Notes under the pieces: generated by a model
Told to the model about the DNA's origin: nothing
Databases searched by the model: none
The model's input: the letters and a program-made list of their open reading frames with translations, nothing else
Program-made: the position numbers and the translations under genes
Shown here: piece by piece, positions 12,722-28,761 of the stretch
Numbering within the stretch: position 1 is the first letter of the stretch
Layout: each line of letters begins with the position of its first letter
Assembly: GCF_044704955.1 (NCBI RefSeq)
Contig: NC_091987.1
Span: 54,374,001 to 54,438,000 of the forward strand
Reading direction: 5' to 3'
DNA: 64,000 nt
Origin: Pristiophorus japonicus
Lineage: Eukaryota

Positions 12722-15663
12722 GTGCTAGAACCTCCACTTTTGTGCTTATCGCCTCAAAATGGGCGTTATTTCTGGCGTGGGCATTAGAAAAGGGTTTTCT
12801 GATGGCCTGCTTCTCGCCCATTCTCAAAACACCTAGTTTCCATTTTTGAAAATGCACGAGCGATATCAAATGGGCGGTAGCGTTAAATTTATTTGACCTT
12901 CTGCCGTAAAGTATCGCCATCCTTAGCAACGGCATGGCAATGCTTGATTCCCGTGATTGAGGAGGTCAAGGGCCATCATAACATGCACAGAAGAGGAGAC
13001 AGAGAGAGAGGGAGCTGAGAGGGACTGAAGGCGTGTGTGGCTGTGGTGTATGCTTGTCTGGCTGTTGTGGGAGGCACGAGGGAGATTCACCAGTAGCAAA
13101 AAGCCTACTAAGCACCAAGAATATAGTTGGCACCGAGTTTCTGTCCAACAAATAAGATATAACATGGAAGGGATGGAGGAGGCTCTGAAGCTGTGAGCCA
13201 GGAACACTGGTGGCAGAGGGCTCCCCGTGGTCCCGGAGTGTGGCACTGCTCCCCAAGGTGCCGCACCACCATTGCTAACCTCACATGAGAGCCAGCAGCA
13301 ACATCTTGCTTCTGGCTCGGAGCACGTTCCCATCTCGGGACCGTCCTCTCCCGTATCCGTCCAAGCAGCGCTTCGGCCATCACCACCGCCCCTCCCCCCC
13401 CCAATGAAGCATCGCCTGAGGACCTCCTCGGCCAGGTGGCTTGGAGTCAGGAGGGGAAGGAGTAGAGGTGGGGAGAAGAAGCGGCCGGCCGGGGCGGGGG
13501 GGCGGGGCGGGCGGAAGGGTTGGTTTGTACAGAAATACTAATGATTTCAGACTAATATTCAGTTTAAATGTTTTTTATTTAACAAAATCTTGTAGCACAT
13601 TGGCTCAGAAAGCTGCACCGTTACACGCTAGTGATTTCTTAACATCAAAAGGTATAATTACACTTAACTTCAATCAACTTAAACTTTAACTGTCACCAAG
13701 GTGATGCCCACCATTGATGTATGACCTACACACCCAGCAGTGTGTCAGCCTTGTAAATAACACCAACGTTCTTTCAGGCAAAGCGATCATTGATGAGCTC
13801 CTGACGTAAGGCTCTTGCAGCTATTATGTCACCATGAGCCCTTTCATGCGGTCTGCAGGTGGGTATGGGCATGGCTTCAGCATCAGCCTGATTGTCTTTG
13901 CTGATGTCAGTGTCCACCTCCTCATCCTCCTCTTCCTCTGTCTGGTGAGGTGGACTGACAGACTCATCAGGCAATTCTTGTCCCCTCCTGATAGCCAAGT
14001 TGCGCAACATGGAGAACACTGCCGCGAATTGAGCTACCTACTCAGGGTGGTATTGGAGCTCACCTCCTGAGTGGTCCAGGCTTCAAAGCGTTGCTTCAGC
14101 ACTCCAATGGTTTTCTCCACGATATTGCGAGTTGCTCTGTGGCTCTCATTGTATCGCCTCGCGGCCTCAGTGTGGATGTCACGCAGGGGAGTCATCAGCC
14201 AAGTGGCGAGGCCATATCCTTTGTCACCAAGCATCCAGCATTGACCTTGTGGCTCATTGTTAAACAAATCAGATACAGTGCTCTCACGCAGGATGTGAGT
14301 ATCATGGATGCTGCCCGGAAATTGAGCATTCACTGCCAGTATAATTTTCTGGTGGTTGACAACCAGTTGGACATTCAGGGAATGGAATCCCTTGTGGTTC
14401 CTGAAAACATCAGCATCCTGAAAAGGTTCCCACATCGCGATGTGCGTACAGTCTATTGCTCCCTGCACCTTGGGAAAGTTTGCAATTCTGGAGAATCCTG
14501 GCACCCTCTCACTCTGTGCCTCCCTGGTCATAGGGAAGCTGATCAAGTCCCTCCTGCATATGTACATGGCTTCTGTGACCTGTCTAAAGCAGCAATCTGT
14601 AGCATGCTGAGAAAATCCGCTAATGTCTCCAGGTGTGGCCTGAAAAGAACCCGAAGCATAGCACGACAGTGCTGCGGTGACTTTGACCTTGACGCACAGT
14701 GCAGTACTGATGGTGCTGGCAGGCTGTAGATCTGCCCTTATCAGCTGGCATACGTCAGTGATAACCTCTTTGTGGAAGCGCAGTCTCCAAAGGCAGGTGG
14801 TGTCGGGCAAGTCGAGGTATGAATGCTTCTCCTTGTACCGCGGTGACTTACAGTGTAACGTCTGGTCCTCCTCATCTATCTGTCACTTCTTACATTGGGT
14901 ACATAATGCAGTGGAGCATTCCTTTGGTGATGTCGAGGCTGCTGCAAGTATTTGGTCACCCAGAGAGGGTGAGAAAGTACAGGCCCCATTGCAGTAGCTC
15001 TCGGTTTTCCACCGATTGCTCACAAACAAGGAATATTCCGATGAAGACACCTCTTCAATTCCAATCGGTCACAGTATGGTCAAGATGTTTGTAGAGATGT
15101 TCACATCAACTCAATGACCTGCAGAGTACATCCGAACTCCACCGAGGTTGAAGCACAGCAGCCTTTTAAAGGACGTGACATGTGATCTCGAACATTGCGT
15201 CCATAACGCTGTGATTCGTTCCGGTTAGTTCCACTTTTTGTGGCCGTTTTTTTGGGCAAGCGATATTGTGGGTGATATGTGTGCCAGGTGGTGAAATTGA
15301 TGATGGCCGATCTCCATGGCCGCTAGTTTGGGTAAATATGCTCTTTATGGCAAAAAACACTGGCCGGGCGTTAATATTGAATCTCAGCGTTAAATCCATT
15401 TGGAAAGTAACGCTGGGCGATATTAAGGTCATTGAATTCGTCCATTCTGCTGATTCTGTCAAAAAAAGTGGGCGGGTGGTAATATTTTTTCTCGCTGTTA
15501 AGCACATGGGGAAAGTAACGCTCGCTGATAAGTTTCTGAAAAATGGCCGCCAGTTTCCATTTTGTGCCAAAATGGGTGATATATGGGCGTTATACGCCAT
15601 TTCAGTGGTAAAATGGGCGTTAAGTGGACGTTAAGCATGCAAAAAAAGTGGAGGTTCTATCCC
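12722..15663 (-). mobile_element. PIF/Harbinger transposon, both ends present, transposase-only (no recognisable Myb/SANT exon)
   Basis: TIRs GTGCTAGAACCTCCACTTTT / AAAAGTGGAGGTTCTATCCC; AAA on both flanks (3-bp TSD). Confidence 0.92.
13774..14989 (-). pseudogene. Harbinger (HARBI1-like) DDE transposase, frameshifted
   Basis: [48 protein letters not shown]; C-terminus LRNLAIRRG...INDRFA in another frame. Confidence 0.93.
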
Positions 15664-18345
15664 AAAGAGATTGCAAGATTTAGTTCATTTGGAGCTGCCA
15701 TAATAACTAAGATGAGAATTGCTTTGAGGGTTCCAATGATGCTCCTAAATTTGTAAGAGTAGATGTTGAGCAGATAAGAAAGGCAGATGTAATGGTACAT
15801 CAGGCTCTATATCGCAACACATCCTTACTCCAAGGCCCTCATTGAAAGCTTCACTTCACAAAATGTAATAACAATACTTGTTAAATGTATTGTTATTACA
15901 TTTGATTATAACTGTTATATTGTTATAACTGTTTGATCTGTCATTTTTTTCAACAAATTAATCTGGCTAAATCTTATTCCACTGAATTTAGCAAATTCCA
16001 AGTTCAATACTTTTAACTTTAACCCCTCTTTTTCATTACCTATTAAAATTTGAATCGAATTAGGTGGTAGTTATTATTCCTCGTTCTGAAGAAGGGCCCT
16101 GTCTGAAATTCTGACCTTTCTTTTCTATTCACAGATGCTGACTGACTTGCCATGTGTTCAAGCATTTTATATTGTCAAGTGGCACATTCTTTTTAAAGCA
16201 ATCAGATGGATGGTTCATGAAACAATTCAACATTTATTTATCCGAAGAGGTTGTTTCTTGTGTATAATATGCAAATAACATGGAGAACTGGCACCACATC
16301 ACATTACACTGTGAAGTACTTCCATAATTTATATGCAGATTTCTGATGCTATTCAGGAATGGAAAACGGTTTGATAATCTATTTTGAATAAAAATAGATT
16401 TTTAAAACATTTATAACATAATACTTGGAGTACTATTTGTTTTGCAATTTCAACACCGTTTTCACCTGAGTGCAATGAGGCAAATATTGGTGCCAATACA
16501 AAAATGTTTTTGCTTTGGTGATAAAGCACTTGAAAAATGTAATCTATCTCAAGCTAAGATTATATTTCCCCCTCCCCACCATTGGCAACACTAAGCAGAG
16601 TTAGCACATGTGCTCCACAAAGTGATGGTGTTGCAGTCCGGTTGGGAGATGGATATTTTTGTCACCTTGTCCAGAGCTTCTTGACTTGCTTCTAATGCAA
16701 TGGTGGAAGGATCTGGTTTCTTTGATTAGATAAGAGTAAAATAGGATGCAGTAAAGGTGCCAGTTTCATGTTGTTGTGTTGCACTTTCAGCTGTGCATTC
16801 ATTTACAAGTGGCAGTGTAACTCTGGAGTCAGGTCCTTATCTAACTCCAGAGCACATTGAAACCAAGCGACGTGAAACCTTAATACCCTAACCATTTGTC
16901 CATTCTTCATATACGAGCCTAGACAAGGAGTGCCAGTAGCAATTGGACCTAAGGTTAACTAACCTATTCTCACCAAACATTCCCACACATGCCCTTTCCA
17001 CTAACTAGTGATTGGAACTAGGAAGACTCTCTAATTTTGCCCTTACTTAATATTGACTTCAATTATAGTGATAGCATTGTTGCCATACTAAGATTAAGGG
17101 GGATATTTTGCGGGAGGGCTGCGGGCGCGATTGATGGCGGGTCAGGTGGGAAATTTTTTTTTTGATAGTGGGTCGGAGAAGGTGTAATGTATGTAGCACT
17201 CAAATCACTGACTCCACACAGTCTGGTTTTGTAGTAACTGCTGTGACTTTAGTCCTTTATTGTGCAACTCCAGAGTGCCTCTCAGGTGTGGTGGGCAGCC
17301 TTTTATACTCTGTCTTGCAGGTACTTTCAGGTCTCCCACCACAGCGCCCTCTGTGGCGCACCATTGTACTTATACATTTAATGTACCTGGACAATACATA
17401 ACATCTCACTCCCCCCCCAGTTCCAAAAGCCATTGCCGGTAACCTCGGCCTTGTTCGTCCTGGTTGGTTTGTGAGTGTGAGTCCATGACCATCCACTTCC
17501 CTCTTCCCCCCCCCCACCCCCATGTAGAAATTATGCTTGCGATCCGGTGCAAACATGTGGTATTTGCAGTCCTTACATGGGTGATGAAGTACACGAGTAT
17601 AACCTCCAACAGAAAGCAAGTATACATAGTACAATTCTATGGTACGTATGATGTATGGTACAGATGTTATGTCAAAAAGTTGCAGGTGCACTGAACAGTT
17701 ATTTAATCCCAGCTCCACTGGGTGAGGTACGGTGGCAGTATACTGCCCCTTTTTGCCCATGGTAATGGGCTGCGCTGAGACAGGGTATCGCAACTAGTGC
17801 ATTGCCTCTGTTCTCAGTAGTCGCTTTAGCGGCTCATCTGCAGCCACTGAACCATTGCATAATCACGTAAATTCGGAAATCGCCTTGGCCCCTTAGGCAT
17901 GTTAGTCACGGACCCATTAACCCTTTTACTTGTACCTCATAGTATTAACTCTTCATAAATCATTCCTATCCATCATTTTAAACACAGTAACCATTCAGCA
18001 TCAAAATATCAACTCTTATCCTACATCATACAAATCACATTACACATTTAGACTCGCTCTTGCCTTACAAAAGTCTTTTTTGTGGGGACCGCCAACAGTG
18101 TAAGGCCCTTTTAAGGCTCCCAGGTGCATTTCCCTTTTAAGACGCCATCTTGTGGTTCTCACGAGGCTTCCCTTGGGTGCCGCCATTTTAGTTTTTTTTG
18201 TACTGCTTGCTTTTGTTCTTTGCAGCCACGAGGCTCGTCACCATCTTGAGCTCGCTGGCCTGACGTTTTGCTGCAGTTAAGAAGGGATAGGAGGATAAAG
18301 AAGAAAGAAAAATAAAAAAAAAACGGCCAAGAATGAGTCGCGGAC

Positions 18346-18580
18346 CTGACTAATGCTGCAGTCACCAGAACGGCTCCTCCTGCCGCCGCCGCTCAAACCA
18401 AGGCTTCCAGCAAGAAGAGGAATGTGATGAATGGCTCCCTGAAGCAGATCAAGGGCACGGGCGCCTCGGACTCCTTCAAAATCGCTACAATGGATCCCCA
18501 GGGGAAAGAAGGTGAAGAAGCCAGCAGCCAAGAAAGCAGCAGCCAAGAAATCACCAGCAACGAAAGCAGCAGCCAAGAAC
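18346..18580 (+). pseudogene. Captured histone H1 fragment, internally deleted, antisense to the retroelement
   Basis: From CTG 18346: TNAAVTRTAPPAAAAQTKASSKKR|NVMNGSLKQIKGTGASDSFKI (H1 signature KGTGASGSFK); after a frameshift, KVKKPAAKKAAAKKSPATKAAAK. Confidence 0.88.
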
Positions 18581-18587
18581 GATTCGA

Positions 18588-18917
18588 TCAGTCATAGTCC
18601 CTGTGACCTCCGTAACTGCCGTAACTGCTGCTGCATCCCCCACTCTGGCTCTTATGCCCACCCGAGTAGCTGTCGCGTTCTCCCGAGTTATGCCGGCCGC
18701 CTCTATAGCCTTCTCTGCCGCCGTGGCCTCCTCTGCCGCCGTGGCCTCCTCTGCCGCCGTGGCCTCCTCTGCCGCCGTGGCCTCCTCTGCCGCTGTGGTC
18801 CCAGTAGCTGCTGCCTCTCCTGCGGCCGCCGTAGCCGCCACCACCGCCACCCGACTTTTTCTCCGCACGGCCCCTCCCGATTTGTCGGCTGTCGATGGGT
18901 TTGTCATTCAATGCCTG
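18588..18917 (-). pseudogene. Captured CIRBP/RBM3-like fragment (end of RRM plus RGG tail, to a stop codon)
   Basis: ALNDKPIDSRQIGRGRAEKKSGGGGGGYGG resembles CIRBP [20 protein letters not shown]; followed by RGG repeats and KSQSGG...RDYD* (CIRBP has RSQSGG...RDSYD). Confidence 0.7.
18713..18798. repeat. 18-bp tandem repeat (CTCTGCCGCCGTGGCCTC) x4 plus a partial copy; encodes GGRGGH on the minus strand
   Basis: Four identical units read directly from the sequence. Confidence 0.95.
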
Positions 18918-18999
18918 CTCTTCCAGGGTCTGCTCGTCTGTGTGTGGCTTCTTTCTCCTCCAGCTCGGTTGGCGCTGCTCTTTGGGAACCCAGGGGACA

Positions 19000-20224
19000 G
19001 CGGTCTGTGGAGGAATGAAGTCTTCCCAGCTCCCATGGACCTTCCCCATCCATCTCCTGCCTAGTAGCGTCAACCCATCGCCTGCAATGACCCACAAAGA
19101 TAAACCGTGCGTCTCGCCCCCGTGAGATACCTACACATCCGCTCTGCCAAGAAAAGGTATCAGTTCCTTGGTGTAGGTACGCAGCTTTGCCATGACCGGG
19201 ACCAATTTGGGTCATGCAGCTGGGTTGACCCACAGTTTTTCAAAAGTTCTCTGACTCATCAACGATGGACCCGATCCAGTGTCCACTTCCATACTCACTG
19301 GGACTCCGTTAATCTTGACCTCCATAATCACTAGGGCCGAATCGTCGGTACACATGTATAATCCAAACACCTCATCTTCTTCTGCCTGCTCCTCGCTGGA
19401 TAGTAGACCATCTACCATCGCCTCAGCCACACGGTGAGTCAGGTTTCTTTTGCACATACGCTGAAGGTAGCCTTTCGTGTGGCAGGTATTGCACGTGTAC
19501 TCCACAAACCTGCACTGGTGAGCCCCATGGCTTCCTCTGCAGCGCCAGCATGGTGCTGCTCGATTAGCCCCCCTCGGCGGACTCTGAGTTCCAGGACCCC
19601 AAGGTCTGTGCTCTCTGCCCTGGGCAGAGCCACATTCTGCAGTTTTGTCCGTGGTGGGCGCTATCCTGTGGACAGTGCCTGCCGGGTTCGAGACAGTGTG
19701 GATCATCTGCTTGGTGCTGCAAGTCGAGGTCATGAATGCCCTGCTGATGGTGATGGCTTGCTTCAGGGTGACTGTAGGCTCAGTGGATAGCAGCTTGTGA
19801 AGGAGACCTTCATGGCCAATCCCCATAACAAAAACGTCCTGCAATGCCTCGTCAAGGTGTGTGCCAAAATCACAAGGTGCCACGAGTCTCCTGAGGTCCG
19901 CAGCATATTTGGTGACATCCTGGCCCTCGGGTCTGCAGTGATGGTAGAATTTGTGCCGGGCCGTGAGGATGCTCTCCTTCCATTTCAGTTGGTCATGAAT
20001 GAGTGCGATCAGCTCCTCATATGACTTGTCCCTGGCACTCTCGGGTGCCAGCAAATCCCTGATGAGACAGTAAACCTCATCACCACAACTGGCAAGCAAT
20101 ATCGCCTTACGCTTCTCTCACAGTGCTTCAGGTCGTTTGTTGTGAAGTAGTACTCAAGCCTTTCCATGAAGGCCTCCCAATCCTTGCCCACCGTAAAATC
20201 CTTTAACGAGCCCAGAGTAGCCAT
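19000..20224 (-). pseudogene. gag: Gypsy gag plus aspartic protease
   Basis: MATLGSL..DWEAFMERLEYYF; QDVFVMGI; two zinc knuckles (CWRCRGSHGAHQC, CNTCHTKGYLQRMC); protease MEVDTGS...LLGR. One frameshift near 20110 and two in-frame stops. Confidence 0.92.
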
Positions 20225-22605
20225 GGTTGCGTGAAGTTCGTTCGTGTCCTTGTTGCCAATGTAATGCATGTAGCACTCAAATCACTGACTCCACACGGTC
20301 TCGTGTTGTAGTAACTGCTGTGATCTTAGTCCTTTATTGTGCAACTCCAGAGTGCCTCTCAGGTGTGGTGGGCAGCCTTTTATACTCTGTCTTGCAGGTA
20401 CTTTCAGGTCTCCCACCACAGCGCTCTCTGTGGTGCACCATTGTACTTATATATTTAATATACCTGGACAATACATTACAGAAGGTAAAAGTGCAGGTTA
20501 GCAATAGGGGTAATGATAATGAGAGTGTGACAGGAAGGAACAGAGCGTATACATTTAAGACAAATTTAAAAGCTCCTAAAACTGAATGCATGCAACATTT
20601 GTAACGAGATAGATGAGTTGACGGCACAAGTAGAAATAAATGGGTATGATCTGATTGCCATTACAGAAACGTGGTTGCAAGGTGACCAAGGATGGGAACT
20701 GAATATTCAGGGATGTGTGCCATTTCGTAAGGTTAGGCAGAAAGGAAAAGGAGGTGGGGTAGTTCTGTTAATAAGGGATGAGATCAGTGCAGTAGTGAGA
20801 AATGATATTGGCTCAGAAGATCAAGATATAGAATCAGTTTGGGTGGAGATAAAAAATAATGATAGGAAGTCACTGGTGGGAGTGATTTTCAGGCCCCCAA
20901 ACAGTAGCCACACTGTAGGACAGAGTATAAATCATGAAATAATAGAGACTTGTAAGAAAGTTATGATGATAATCATGGGCCATTTTAATCTTCATATTGA
21001 TTGGACAAATCAAATTGGCAAAGATAGCCTGGAGGAAAAGCTCATAGAGTGAATGCAGGATGGTTTCTTGCCATACCTTGTGGAACCAACCAGGGAGCAG
21101 ACTATTCTAGATCTGGTAATGTGTAACAAGTCTGAATTAATTCATGATCTCGTAGTGAAGGATCCTCTTGGGAGGAGTGATCACAGCATGGTAGAATTTC
21201 AAATTCATTTTGAGGGTGAGAAAACTAGTTCTTAATCTAGTGTCCTGAACTTAAATAAAGGTAATTACAAAGGTATGAAGGCAGTGCTGGTTAAAGTGGA
21301 CTGGGGAAATATATTAAAGGGTAAGACTAGAAAAGCAGTGGCAAACATTTAAAGAGATATTTCATAACTCTTAGCAAAGATATACTCCAGTGAGAAGAAA
21401 AACTGTAAGAGAAGTATGAATCTTCCAGGGCTAACTAAGGACATAAAGGATGGTATCAAATTGAAAACAATGGCATACAATGTTGCGAAGAACAGTGGAA
21501 GGCCAGGGGATTGGGAAATTTGTAGAAACCAGCAAAGGACAACTGAAAAAATGATAACGAGAGATAAGATAGCTTATGAGAGTACTTACTAGCAAGAAAT
21601 AAAAAAACAGAAAGTCAGAGCATCTACAGGTATATAAAAAGGAAGAGAGTAGCTAAAGTAAATGTTGGTCCCTTAGCGGGTGAGATTGGGGTATTAATAA
21701 TGGGAAACAGGGAAATGGCGGAGACTTTGAACAAATATTATGTATCGGTCTTCACGGTAGAGTGCACAAAAAGCATCCCAATAATTGATAATCAAGGGGC
21801 TATTGGGAGGGGGGGGGATCTTAAAACAATCACTATCACTAGAGAAAAAATACTAGGCAAACTAATGGGACTAAAGGTGGACTAGTCCCCTGAACCTGAT
21901 GGCCGCCATCTTAGTGACTTAAAAGAGGTGGCTGCAGTGATAGTGGATGCATTGGTTGTAATCTACCAAAATTTCCTTGATTCTGGAGAGGTCCCAGCGG
22001 ACTGGAAAACTGCAAATGTAACACCCTTATTTAAGAAAGGAGGGAGATAGAAAGCAGGAAACTATAGAACAGTTAGCCTAACGTCTGTCATTGGGAAAAT
22101 GCTGGAGTCCATCATTAAGGAAATAGTAGCAGGCCATTTAGAAAATCATAACACAGTCAAGCAGAAACAGCACAGTTTTTTGAAACATAAATCATGTTTG
22201 ACAAATTTGCTGGAGTTCTTTGAGGATGTAATGAGCAGGGTGGATGAAGGGGAACCAGAAGATGTTGTGTATTTGGATTTACAGAAAGCATTCGATAAGG
22301 TACCACATAAAAGGTTACTGCACAAGATAAGAGCTCACGGGGTTGAGGGTAATATATTAGCGTGGATAGAGGATTGGCTAACTTACAGAAAGCAGAGAGT
22401 CGGGATAAATGGGTCATTTTCAGTTTGGCAAACTGTAACTAGTGGGGTGCCACAGGGATCAATGCTGGGGCCTCAACTATTTACAATTTATATTCATGAC
22501 TTGGATAAAGGGACCGAGTGTAATGTAGCCAAATTTGCTGATGATACAAAGATAGATAGGAAAGCAAGTTGTGAGGAAGATGCAAAGAATCTACAAAGGG
22601 ATATA

Positions 22606-24126
22606 GGGCTAGATTTTCCGATTTTGTGCAGATTGCCCAAAAATGAGCATTATTTCCGGTGTGGACAGTAAAAATGGGTTTTCAGATCGCTGGCTTCTTG
22701 CCCATTCTCAAAGCACCTAGTATCCAGTTTTTAAAATGGCCGTTACCGCGAGCGATATGAAATGGGTGGTAGCATTAAATCTCGCTGACCTTCTGCCGTA
22801 AAGTGTCGCCGTCCTTCGCAACGGCATGACAACACTCGATTCCCGCGATCCAGGAGGTCAAGGGTCATCATGACATGCGCAAAAGAGGAGACAGAGAAAG
22901 AGGAAGCTCAGAGGAACTGAAGGCGTGTCTGGGTGTGGTGTGTCTGCTTTCGGAGGAAAGACGGAGACTTTAGAGCTTCACTGCAAATAGGAAAACAAAA
23001 ATTAGATGTTACCGCCACATATTTGCCCGAATTTGGCCTAAAATGGAGGTAGAGGAGGAGGCATCACAGCACGCTATGGAGACCGATGCTGGAGAGAGCA
23101 GTGAGGTAAGGAGCACATTGGAGGGCGCAAAAGAGCGAGGAGGTTCTCGGACGAGGCAAATGCGTCCCTCCTGCAGGAGGTCGAGTTACGCTGGGGTGAT
23201 TTGTCATAGGTGGGGCGTGGGAAGCCCACCCCAAAGGCCTACCAGAAGATATGGACCGAGATAGCAGAGGTGGTCTCGTCGGCAACCAACGAGGTGCGTG
23301 AGTGCAACCAATGCCGCAAACCTTCTCCCATTGGAAGGGAAGATGACTTCCCTGTGTGCTATGACTCCTTCCATAAGCACCTGGAGGGAGTGATGGAAGA
23401 GCCTGAGTGCAACCGTGCACCTTTGTGCTGTGTTTGTCAGTGTTTGCAGCACCTCAATGCTGCAGAACACTGACAGCACAACTGTCAAAATGAATGTGGG
23501 CATGGTCCCTTTAAGTAAACTGGCTGATGATGCATCATCATATGTTCATTGGCTGGTAACCTCGTAGGCGGGCTTAATAAACCCCATCTCGGGAAGATTG
23601 TTTCGAGAGGGCGGGCTGCAGTGAGGAGCAGGTTCCCCACATGCCACTGATGCCGGCCGCACTGGACTTGCCATGGATGGCGAAATGGTGCCCACATGTC
23701 CCATTTTGCACTGCATTTTTCTCTTTTTCTGCTGGGTTTTGAGTGGAACTGATGGTTGTGTTTGGTTTCCCAGCTAAAGGAAATAGGCATTTTGACACAT
23801 AAAGGAAAACCTATTCTTAACAATGAATTGGTGTGTCTTTTTTATATACCATTTTGTGCATTCGACTTTGGATACCTTGCAAATCTGTTGAATTAGCTTG
23901 TGTGTTTTTTGCAATTTAGTTCAGACATATTTCCATAATTAAAGGCCAAACAATGCCATTGTATATATGGATTTTGTTATGAATTTAAATAACGCTCGGC
24001 GATTAGCTTCCAAAAAATGTCCGTCAGTTGCCATTTTGTGCGCAAATGGGCAATATATGGATGTTATATGTCATTTCAGCGGTAAAATGGGTGTTAAGCA
24101 TACAAAAAAAGTGGTGGTTCCAGCCC
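22606..24126 (+). mobile_element. Internally deleted Harbinger element with a Myb/SANT exon and no transposase
   Basis: Ends GGGCTAGATTTTCC / GGTGGTTCCAGCCC; TSD ATA on both sides inside the CR1; subterminal sequence shared with 12722-13050 and 15570-15663. Confidence 0.88.
23043..23320 (+). pseudogene. Harbinger Myb/SANT (trihelix) DNA-binding protein, first exon fragment
   Basis: MEVEEE..., then after a frameshift RKRARRFSDEANASLLQEV...YQKIWTEIAEVVSS...RECNQCRK. Confidence 0.8.
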
Positions 24127-24195: not shown

Positions 24196-27100
24196 TGTTG
24201 TGTATCTGTAAAGCATGCACTCCCATGTTCCGCCATCAGGGAGCACATCCCCTGAAGTCCCAAGGGATCCCAGCATCCCTTGGGAGCACTGTGTATAAGC
24301 CAGCCCCTAAGGCCTGTTCCTCACTCTGGAGTGTCTTAACAAAGACTGAGGTCACTGTAACTTTAATCTCCCTCTGTGCAGTCTCATCTGTTTTAGGAAC
24401 ACAATAACTGCCGACGAGTATACGAATCCAACGCAAAGATGCAGCAAAATGAGGGTATCCTGGAGAAGTTCTCGGAAGGTGAGGACAGGGAAGCCTATGT
24501 CGAATGGTTAGACCAGTACTTTGCAGCCAACGAGCTGGACAGAGTAAGAAGTGCTGCAAAAAGGAGAGCGGTCCTCCTCACGGTCTGCGGGGCACCAACC
24601 TACAGCCTCATGAAGAATCTTCTGGCTCTGGTGAAACCCACGGATAAGTCGTATGAGGAGCTGTGTACACTGGTTCGGGAGCATCTTAACCTGAGGGAGA
24701 GCGTGCTGATGGCGAGGTATAGGTTCTACACGTGCCAGCGACCTGAAGATCAGGAAGTGGCAAGCTACGTCGCTGAGTTAAGGCGACTTACATGACAATG
24801 TGAGTTTGATGGCTACCTGGAGCAGATGCTCAGAGACTTTTTTGTATTGGGCATTGGCCACGAGACCATCCTACGAAAACTTTGACTGTAGAGACACCGA
24901 CCCTCAGTAAGGCCATTGCGATAGCACAGGCGTTTATGTCCACCACTGATAACACCAAACAAATCTCTCAGCATACAAGTGCTAGCAATGTTCATAAATT
25001 AACTAGAACTGTGTTTGCAAGCAGAAATGTACAGGGCAGAAAACACGAGTCTGCAACTTCCAGCAGGCCTCAGGTGACCCAGATGACTCAGAGTCCGCAT
25101 CAAAGGATGAATGCAAGGCAATTCACACCTTGTTAGCATTGTGGAGGCTTCCATTCAGCCTATTCATGCCACTTCAAAGGTTATGTTTGCAAGAGCTGTG
25201 GAACAATGGGGCACCTCCAACGAGCTTGCAGACAAGCTGCAAGCTCTGCCAAACCTGTTAACCACCACGTGGCAGATGAAGATTGGTCCATGGTGGATCA
25301 AAGCAATTTCAAGCCTCAGAGAGAGGAGACAGATGCTGAAGTACAAGGGGTGCACACATTTTTGACAAAATGTCCACCTATAATGCTCAATATAAAATTG
25401 AATGGCTTACACGTAGCCATGGAACTGGACACTGGCACTAGCTAATCCATCATGAGTAAAAAGATGTTTGAGAGACTGTGGTGCAATAAGGCACTCAGAC
25501 CAGCCCTGAGCCCCATCCACATGAAACTGAGAACGTACACCAAAGAACTCATCACTGTCCTGGGCAGTGCCATGGCCAAGGTCACCTACGAGGGCACGGT
25601 ACATGTACTGCCACTTTGGATTGTCCCGGGTGATGGCCCCACACTGCTTGGAAGGAGCTGGCTGGGCAAAATCCGCTGGAACTAGGATGACATCCGAGCG
25701 AGGTCGATGAGGCCTCATGTGCCCAGGTTCTTAACAAATTTCCTTCTCTTTTTGAGCCAGGCATTGGAAACTTTTCCGGGGCGAAGGTGCGGATCCACTT
25801 GGTCCCAGAGGCACGACCCATTCACCACAAGGCACGAGTGGTACCTCACATGATGAGGGAGAGAGTGGAAATCGAGCTGGACAACGTGCAATGCGAGGGC
25901 ATCATCTTCCCAGTGGAATTCAGCGAGTGGACCAGCCTAATTGTTCCAGTACTCAAAAGTGATGGCACGGTCAGGATTTGCGGCGAATATAAAGTAACTA
26001 TTAATCGTTTCTTGCCACATGACCAATACCCACTACCTAAGGCAGAGGATCTATTTGCAACGCTGGCAGGAGGCAAGACGTTCACCAAGCTCGACCTGAC
26101 TTCGGCCAACATGATGCAGGAGCTGGAGGGGTCTTCGAAGGGCCTCACCTGCATCAACACGCACAAGGGACTGTTCATCTACAACAGATGCCCGTTTGGA
26201 ATTCGGTCGGCTGCAGTGATCTTCCAGAGAAACATGGAGAGCCTACTCAAGTCGGTACCACACACAGTGGTTTTTCAGGACGATATATTGGTCACGGGTC
26301 GGGACACTGTCGAGCACCTACAAAACCTGGAGGAGGTCCTCCAGCGACTGGATCGCGTAGGGCTGCGGCTGAAGAGGTCAAAATGCATCTTCATGGCAAC
26401 AGAAGTGGAGTTTTTGGGGAGAAAGAGCGCAGCGGATGGCATTCGGCCCACAGATGCCAAGACAGAGGCTATCAGGAACGCGCCCAGGCCACAGAATGTC
26501 ACGGAGCTGTGGTCGTTCCTGGGACTCCTCAACTATTTTGGTAACTTCTTACTGGGGTTAAGCACTCTCTTACAGCCCCTACATGTGCTATTTTGTAAAG
26601 GTGAGAACTGGGTATGGGGAAAAAAACCAAGTGATTGCTTTTGAGAAAGCCAGAAACATTTTATGCTCCAACAAGCTGCTTTTATTGTATAACCCATGTA
26701 AAAGAGTTGTGCTGGCATGTGATGTGTCGTTGTACGGAGTCGGCTGTGTATTACAACAAGCTAATGTTGCGGAGAAGTTGCAACCTGTCACCTATGCTTA
26801 CAGGAGCTTGTCTCAGGCCGAGAGGGCCTACAGCATGATTGAGAAAGAGGCATTAGCATGTGTGTTCGGGGTAAAGAAAATGCATCAGTACCTGTTTGGC
26901 CTCAAATTTGAGCTGAAAACCGATCACAAGCCCCTCAAACAAGGGGATAAATACTAAGGTGGGCACTCGCGCTATCAGCATATAACTCTACCATCCGCCA
27001 CAGGCCAGGCACCGAGAACTGTACGGATGCTCTCAGTCGGCTACCATTGCCCACCACAGGGGTGGAAATGGCACAGCCTGCAAACTTGTTGGTGGTGGCG

Positions 27101-28761
27101 CAGCCCGCAGATTTGTTGATGGTCATGGAAGCGTTTGAAAATGATAAATCACCTGTCACGGCCCGCCAGATTAGGACTTGGACCAGCCAAGATCCTCTGC
27201 TGTCCATAGTAAAAAACTGTGTACTGCATGGGAGCTGGGCCAGCATCCCCGTTGAAATGCAAGAACTAATCAAGCCATTCCAGCGGCAAAAGGACGAGCT
27301 ATCCATTCAGACAGACTGCCTGTTGTGGGGTAACCGCGTAGTGCTACCAAAAAAGGACAGGGAGATGTTCATCTCGGATCTCCACAGCACACACCCGGGT
27401 ATAGTAATGATGAAACCGATAGCCAGATCCCATGCTTGGTGGCCCTGTATCGACTCTGACTTAGAGTCCTATGTACGGCAATGCAGCGTGTGTGCTCAGT
27501 TGAGCAACGCGCCCAGAGAGGCACCACTAAGTTTGTGGTCCTGTCCCTCCAGACCATGATCGAGGATCCATGTCGACTATGCGTGCCCGTTTCTCGTTAG
27601 AATGTTCCTGGTGTTGTTGGATGCTTTTTCAAAATGGATTGAACGTGAAATAATGTCAGGAAGCACCGCCACTGCAACCACTGAAAGCCTGAGGGCCATG
27701 TTTGCCACCCACAGCCTGCCTGACATATTGGTCAGTGACAACGGGCCATGTTTCACCAGTGCCGAATTTAAAGAATTCATGTCGCGCAATGGGATCAAAC
27801 ATGTCACCTCGGCCCCGTTTAAACCAGCCTCCGATGGGCAGGCAGAGCGGGCAGTACAAACAATCAAACAAAGCCTTAAACGAGTCACAGAAGGCTCACT
27901 CCAAACCCGCCTGTCCCGAGTACTGCTCAGCTGCCGCAGAGACCGCACTCGCTCACAGGGGTGCCCCCGGCTGAGCTACTCATGAAAAGGACACTTAAAA
28001 CCAGGCTCTCGCTGGTTCACCCCAACCTGCATGATCAGGTTGAGAGCAGGCGGCAGCAAGAAAATGTAAACGATGGTCGCGCCACTGTGTCACGGGAAAT
28101 TGATCTGAATGATCCTGTGTATGTGCTAAACTATGGACATGGTCCCAAGTGAATCGCGGGCACAGTGATAGCTAAAGAAGGGAGTAGGGTGTTTGTAGTC
28201 AATCTCGACAATCGACAAATTTGCAGAAAGCACCTGGACCAAACGAGGTTGCGGTTCACAGACTGCCCTGAACAACCCACAGCAGACACCACCTTTTTCG
28301 AGCCACAACACACACCCAAAAGATCAATGACACCACACCGGACCAGGAAATCGAACCCATCACACCCAACAGCCCAGCAAGGCCAGGCTCACCCAGCAGC
28401 CCTGCAAGGCCAACAACACGCCAGCCCAGCGAGGGCACAGCCAACACACCAGAACAGATATTTATACCGAGGCGGTCCACCAGGGAAAGAAAGTCTCCCG
28501 ACCGTCTCACCTTGTAAATAGTTTTCACTTTGACTTTGCCGGGGGAGTGATGTTGTGTTTTTTTAAAGCATGCATTCCCATGTTCTGCCACCAGGGAGCG
28601 CATCCCCTGAAGTCCCAAGGGATCCTAACATCCCTTGGGAGTACTGTATCTAAGCCGGCCCCTAAGGCCTGTTCCTCACTCTGGAGTGTCTTAATAAAGA
28701 CTGAGGTCACTGTTACTTTAATCTCCCTGTGTGCAGTCTCATCTTTGTTCGGAACACAATA
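24196..28761 (+). mobile_element. Full-length but decayed Ty3/Gypsy LTR retrotransposon (Mag-like)
   Basis: 211-bp LTRs at 24196-24406 and 28551-28761 (~20 mismatches by eye); PBS-like ACTGCCGACGAG; PPT GGGGGAGTGA; imperfect TSD TTACT/TTATC. Confidence 0.95.
24439..28520 (+). pseudogene. Gypsy gag-pol (Gag, PR, RT, RNase H, IN), many stops and frameshifts
   Basis: ELDTG protease; RICGEYK, CPFGI, VFQDD (RT); ACDVS, YSMIEKEALA, TDHKPL (RNase H); HSTHPG, VSDNGPCF, GQAER (integrase); domain order PR-RT-RH-IN. Confidence 0.93.

Follow-up and report, generated by a model that had tools for sequence, protein, structure and literature searches.

Between positions 17183 and 20480, on the minus strand, the 64,000-nucleotide stretch of the Pristiophorus japonicus genome that we analysed (the window) carries a 3.3-kb LTR element made up of gag, protease, a CIRBP-like piece, an antisense histone H1 piece and a non-coding 3′ region. 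Its two LTRs of 221 nt each, at 20260–20480 (5′, with TG...CA ends) and 17183–17403 (3′), are 95% identical and are flanked by a perfect 5-bp target-site duplication (20481–20485 and 17178–17182). A stretch starting with TGG just inside the 5′ LTR (20245–20259) resembles a primer-binding site, judging from its position. It is followed by gag (19331–20224, approximate boundaries), which has two Cys/His knuckle-like arrays and is 35% identical to the Gag-Pol protein P0005, and by an aspartic protease (19020–19330; Pfam aspartyl protease, E = 1.8e-4) with its catalytic DTG at 19283–19275. Behind the protease lie a short basic linker (18947–19019) and two captured CIRBP-like pieces (18915–18943 and 18581–18918), all on the same strand, and then the H1 piece, which reads on the plus strand (18335–18579). 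The 3′ non-coding region (17404–18334, minus strand) is common to the family and ends in a G-rich polypurine tract at about 17404–17418; three AAGATGG-type motifs near its start (18140–18260), which we take to resemble YY1 sites, are kept in all subfamilies.

The paired LTRs, TG...CA ends, target-site duplication and polypurine tract are hallmarks of Gypsy-type LTR elements, and the 5-bp duplication recurs in many copies. The nearest full-length relatives, P0005 and an element at locus L170 (68% nucleotide identity over the protease), have the Gypsy domain order, and no RT was found downstream of the protease in the window element itself. We presume that the element belongs to the Mag clade. 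It is flanked by what we take to be a Harbinger-like transposase remnant (13995–14882, minus) and CR1-like endonuclease/RT remnants (20570–22671, plus). A degenerate full-length Gypsy-type gag-pol element with 211-nt LTRs that are 91% alike, related but of a different family, occupies window positions 24196–28761 on the plus strand.

The original prediction for this locus described a Gag–protease frame continuing into an RGG tail in the position of RT, and most of that anatomy was borne out. Two open reading frames (19212–20117 and 18588–19130, minus strand, stop to stop) share one frame with two stops between them, protease peptide lies there, and no RT follows. The frame that opens with the start codon at 20224 differs from that of the protease, owing to a third break near 20120 within gag; the other two breaks are the in-frame stops at 19212–19214 and 19131–19133, both in the protease. 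As other copies mostly have sense codons at these stops (66/74 and 71/74), all three breaks in the window copy look like decay after insertion.

When the tail was used as a query, four proteins matched, all labelled P. japonicus by their source. One of them, P0003, is identical to host gene L041, which belongs to a cluster of five CIRBP-like paralogs (L038–L042, G000:C7:219414978-219764717). This host protein has an N-terminal RRM and an RGG tail, and among single-RRM structures it matches CIRBP (E = 6e-37) and RBM3 (E = 1.5e-33) best; together with the match of the window to L039/L041, this confirms that the tail is CIRBP-like. No significant match emerged from a structure search with the tail, a Pfam search for an RRM in the window ORF and in P0004 found none, and no longer fused protein scored in the protein collection, which is weak evidence. 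P0002 and P0004, the latter aligning to the genome in one piece, are element copies annotated as ‘RNA-binding protein 3-like’; gene models of this kind inflate the CIRBP/RBM3 family in this genome. Seven further loci on small contigs (L031–L037) were rejected as host loci, being element copies duplicated as DNA. They represent a single insertion, with the same target duplication and LTRs about 80–84% alike, that was duplicated in microsatellite-rich arrays on several contigs.

Compared with L039/L041, the captured sequence falls into two pieces, with a 120-nt deletion between them at a 4-nt microhomology. The first comprises host codons 15–24 (29/29 nt identical) in the protease frame. The second comprises the last RRM strand and the RGG tail with expanded 18-nt repeats, followed by the native stop at 18588–18590 and 7–8 nt of 3′ UTR; the RNP1 region is missing in all aligned copies derived from this paralog (paralog A). 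A linker of about 35 amino acids had been proposed to precede the CIRBP sequence. The linker exists (about 19019–18947), comes from an older RT-less lineage and is neither pol nor CIRBP, and the capture begins earlier than proposed, at 18943–18915. Because the coding sequences of all five host paralogs are free of introns, the suggested exon-junction test is uninformative for CIRBP; it did give a positive answer for another cargo, described below.

The fusion is not a chance event at one locus. A junction search returned 2110 candidates, and all 40 that were scored match across the CIRBP joint at 88–100% identity; among 30 junction copies fetched, most are full-length with the same plan as the window element. 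A 24-nt motif from the protease end has 1003 exact matches in the genome (control, 0), and the true copy number is likely to be higher. Our frame-blind sample consists of 70 copies drawn, in order of position and regardless of frame, from the first 71 listed motif matches, one of which was already in the data set. CIRBP-derived sequence was present in 40 of these 70 copies. Paralog-A sequence was found in 22 copies and a heavily remodelled CIRBP derivative in 13 (10 with weak direct matches), so that 35/70 are paralog-A-derived, and in the remaining five the sequence stems from a second paralog (L038, paralog B), comprising its 5′ UTR and as many as 52 codons. Another 28 have no CIRBP and GC-rich open filler instead, and two fall outside these classes. 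The joint between the CIRBP stop and H1 seen in the window has 25 exact 30-mer matches in the genome.

None of the 70 copies has an RT after the protease; pol-like matches in three of them sit at or beyond the 3′ LTR or on the opposite strand. The copies are nevertheless dispersed, with paired LTRs and distinct target duplications, as expected of a non-autonomous family. LTR pairs are mostly 92–99% alike in all cargo classes, and DTG is kept in 64 of 72 copies. An exact-pattern search for a helper with the same LTR found none and gave one distant RT-bearing match, 68% alike over the protease. A second RT-less gag–protease family, 72% alike and with 305-nt LTRs, is nested in an RT-bearing element (L170:4751-8159); it has the post-protease linker in common with the window's family, and its tail is open.

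The history of the cargo can be read from the gag–protease tree, which comprises 74 of 80 rows, the other six having too little coverage, and is rooted on the 72%-identical RT-less relative. Cargo-free copies lie at the base and all CIRBP-bearing rows form one branch (100/98), in which paralog-B rows are basal and paralog-A-derived rows nested (100/99); these values are supports without a clade test from a bootstrap that had not settled, and the root is one long branch. Diagnostic coding positions carry paralog-B alleles at 19, 24 and 25 and paralog-A alleles at 58, 69–71 and 179. Position 81 is discordant, being paralog-B-like, and given this site the source of the CIRBP piece could be an unseen mosaic paralog. 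On the tree and the diagnostic alleles, two independent CIRBP captures were rejected for a two-step history. The linker before the cargo is common to the 72%-identical relative, similarity to the RT-bearing element stops at the protease end, and the cargo joints show microhomologies of 3–8 nt. In the order that we infer, a cargo-free RT-less ancestor would first have taken CIRBP paralog B sequence from the 5′ UTR through codon 52, and a homology-guided switch to paralog A would then have brought in the remaining coding sequence. In-frame deletions would later have taken out the filler along with the bulk of the RRM, including RNP1. After these steps the window's branch probably acquired its antisense H1 patch behind the stop, and a 7SL patch or a circular-RNA copy probably entered other branches.

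The H1 patch, which the original prediction had not mentioned, was recognized by Pfam (E = 3.6e-4) and is 81–88% identical to a host H1 gene. It is joined at an 8-nt microhomology, has lost its start codon and carries shared deletions of 177 and 8 nt. This untranslated sequence has a dN/dS of 0.58 within copies and 0.94 net to the host. Capture of H1 and CIRBP together, as convergent neighbours, was rejected: the CIRBP-like genes are on C7 and H1 genes mostly on C9, C19 and C2056, and H1 is confined to derived subfamilies. Seven copies (L119:1612-1669, L102, L112, L117, L132, L137 and L149) contain a 57-nt antisense 7SL patch, 88–97% identical to host 7SL genes, which sits in frame and stop-free in the CIRBP remnant. 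An Rfam scan of 10 loci missed this short patch, which direct comparison with the host 7SL genes revealed. Retroviral particles are known to carry 7SL (PMC4997597).

Paralog-B copies carry an antisense insert (L116:1907-2300) that matches three host exons at G000:C28:21177705-21221680, in a gene with a dsRNA-binding motif (Pfam E = 4.5e-6). The exons measure 174, 156 and 66 nt, and each is bordered by AG and GT. Along the insert the end of exon 2 comes first, followed by exon 3, exon 1 and the start of exon 2, covering 395 of 396 nt, or one turn. For this insert 95 matches exist in the genome. The joint of exon 3 to exon 1 was found in 18 of 19 distinct copies checked, and no duplicate exons lie within 100 kb on either side of the host gene. 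This arrangement suggests that the insert is likely a copy of a back-spliced circular RNA. Among the cargoes, only this insert has lost introns that show an origin from RNA; the CIRBP-like, H1 and 7SL sources lack introns over the stretch that was captured. Two further inserts of 270–400 nt are common to several copies, between RGG and H1 in L133 and L027 and after RGG in L125, L083 and L087; their antisense frames are partly open, and they may be more captured mRNAs.

Next, we compared constraint along the element between RT-less subfamilies of the frame-blind sample. Net dN/dS was 0.11–0.21 for gag codons 1–150 (the capsid half) and 0.26–0.31 for the protease. The remainder of gag, at 0.32–0.70, is weakly constrained; the non-coding control, read in three arbitrary frames, gave 0.63–0.77, and private changes gave 0.63–0.93. 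The capsid half of gag and the protease are under purifying selection between these subfamilies. Shared indels in the 1287 nt of gag–protease come down to two, both in frame, after nine of 11 rows were set aside (five confined to DNA-level duplicates, four private to the reference). The 840 nt of 3′ non-coding DNA hold 33 rows of shared indels, four of them in frame, some rows being splits of one event. Purifying selection and the rarity and frame of shared indels in gag–protease suggest that RT-less master copies likely needed their own Gag and protease. The family would then have made its own Gag–protease, with RT and integrase likely borrowed from a helper.

As gag and protease are under selection and no stop precedes the tail, the tail was likely translated as well, and the frame at the junction is kept in 16 of 20 position-ordered copies. 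Active ancestors therefore probably made a fused protein with the CIRBP tail in the protease frame, which agrees with the Gag–protease–RGG polyprotein of the original prediction. Such a tail would occupy the place where RT is normally cut off, one-to-one with Gag.

Indels between the protease end and the RRM remnant indicate that this frame was held open. All five shared events are in frame (−21, −51, +57, −18 and net +12), compared with three of eight private events (18 copies against one reference). The founding −126, the join and −69 are also in frame, and the resulting eight of eight gives Fisher P = 0.026 against the private events and 0.008 under a null of 0.55; without the three founding events, the comparison of 5/5 with 3/8 gives P = 0.075, and the case was noticed because it was in frame. 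No shared frameshift was seen between the protease and the RRM remnant in the position-ordered sample. Copy sets from protein searches (L063–L092), which favour open frames, were kept out of this tally except for the founding deletion.

These observations probably, though by no means certainly, reflect an RT-less Gypsy-type family that captured host RNA by template switching and whose tail was translated, with selection acting on the open frame and not on the RGG sequence. Host RNAs packaged in particles, namely transcripts of two CIRBP paralogs, H1, 7SL and a back-spliced three-exon circle, would have been joined to the element in this way. The original prediction had anticipated that a Gypsy-type element took up a CIRBP-like host RNA, in frame behind the protease and in the place of RT.

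That prediction also raised a role for the tail as an added RNA-binding module. In this alternative, which we regard as rather unlikely, the RGG tail would be selected for its composition, binding RNA or forming condensates and so helping the RT-less RNA to co-assemble with helper particles; the frame would have been kept while the RRM was whittled away because the tail aids co-assembly. The eight in-frame events leading up to the tail are consistent with such a role, as are the stepwise deletion of the folded RRM with retention of the RGG part, the expansion of the 18-nt RGG-coding repeat in the window's branch and the paralog-A ancestry of half the sampled copies. Eight shared indels inside the tail are likewise in frame, but 54–97% would be expected to be so within the repeat. 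Moreover, the amino-acid sequence of the tail shows no detectable constraint: its net dN/dS is 0.67 between host and subfamily S1, 0.59 between host and window type and 0.57 between S1 and window type, equal to the non-coding control, and exceeds 1 against a frameshifted subfamily, with all tail intervals including 1, although dN/dS on an 80-codon low-complexity tail has little power and a function at the level of composition could go unseen. The frame, too, is lost towards the end. In one subfamily a shared 22-nt deletion frameshifts the end of the tail. That end is in frame in just four of 18 position-ordered copies and nine of 24 window-type copies (largely via changes in G-tract length), and beyond a long G tract the remodelled, youngest-looking subfamily has its frames distributed 3:3:1. 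The 28 copies without CIRBP were amplified all the same, with similar LTR ages, and Gag already has its knuckle-like arrays. The captured tail is more likely to have been tolerated disordered cargo than a working tool.

We consider it improbable that the in-frame state is accidental, that is, that neutral cargo stayed in frame through codon-periodic microhomology and that an in-frame case was chosen for study. Microhomology deletions are expected in frame from sequence alone in 40–61% of cases in the RRM part, besides the high proportion in the RGG repeat; the untranslated H1 patch also has its large in-frame deletion next to the 8-nt one, and shared indels in cargo-free filler are mixed. However, the sample without a shared frameshift up to the RRM remnant was chosen blind to frame, and the 7SL patch is in frame and stop-free although it derives from a non-coding RNA without codon period. 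That the cargo matters as RNA, with CIRBP, antisense H1 or 7SL, or circle stretches aiding stability, localization or pairing of the element RNA, is very improbable: three patches that are antisense or behind the stop did spread with their subfamilies, but each can be absent, varies from one subfamily to another and has been eroded by deletions, and no function is needed for spreading with a master copy.

Transducing retroviruses offer a familiar precedent, as their gag–onc fusions join host sequence to gag. The shark element differs from them in that no envelope was seen, its relatives are of Gypsy type, its cargo gives no signal of gain of function, and this cargo has become a fixed repeat family of the germ line. 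Both have defective genomes that need a helper, and the accessible part of PMC4997597 describes co-packaged 7SL patched in by recombination. LTR-mediated retrocopies (Tan et al. 2016, PMC5131818), as far as the consulted portion of that article describes them, have two LTRs enclosing pieces of host RNA in the place of internal ORFs, joints with short microsimilarity, several parent genes per element and secondary retroposition as non-autonomous elements. Host sequence in the place of an internal ORF and microsimilarity at switch points are equally features of the shark family. By contrast with those cases, it has at least 1003 motif-bearing copies in several subfamilies, constrained gag and protease, and serially stacked captures that include non-coding and back-spliced RNA. 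The same capture mechanism is described in PMC5131818 and PMC4997597. For an advantage from RGG, which is unsupported, we see a modest chance.

Maize Bs1 likewise has unlinked pieces of host genes, partly in frame, that form a chimeric ORF in an LTR element; the sections available of PMC5131818 and PMC13317346 give one to five copies and report transcription and translation. The shark family, by contrast, is vertebrate and high-copy and has an intact-type protease. Plant TR-GAG elements, in the available text of PMC4350172, are also non-autonomous and shorter than 4 kb, with two LTRs, a 5-bp target duplication and gag and without RT or integrase. They are defined by the absence of a protease, whereas the shark family has one, which retains DTG and is constrained as described above, with a cargo slot behind it. 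A literature search covering openly available articles found no account of a Gag–protease–CIRBP/RGG fusion or of this shark family; comparable examples from fish may appear in the PMC5131818 supplements.

Most known examples of host-RNA capture by LTR elements involve few copies, and here one high-copy family records a series of captures with the host sources in the same genome. Having a series with identified sources makes selection on frame separable from selection on sequence. The family also shows that selection on Gag and protease can persist in elements without RT, with the old RT position becoming a cargo slot. A bolder interpretation, which we offer tentatively and think doubtful, is that a host RGG tail was domesticated as a Gag-fused RNA-condensing module and that the cargo slot is a germ-line fossil record of packaging, including a one-turn copy of a circular RNA. 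That copy resembles circRNA-derived pseudogenes (Dong et al. 2016, PMC4897178), which, in the part of the paper available, also show a non-colinear exon junction in genomic copies and an association with LTRs. PMC4897178, which calls the mechanism unknown, suggested a route through LTR elements; the three-exon shark insert differs in lying inside such an element as one full turn, and it places a likely back-spliced RNA there.
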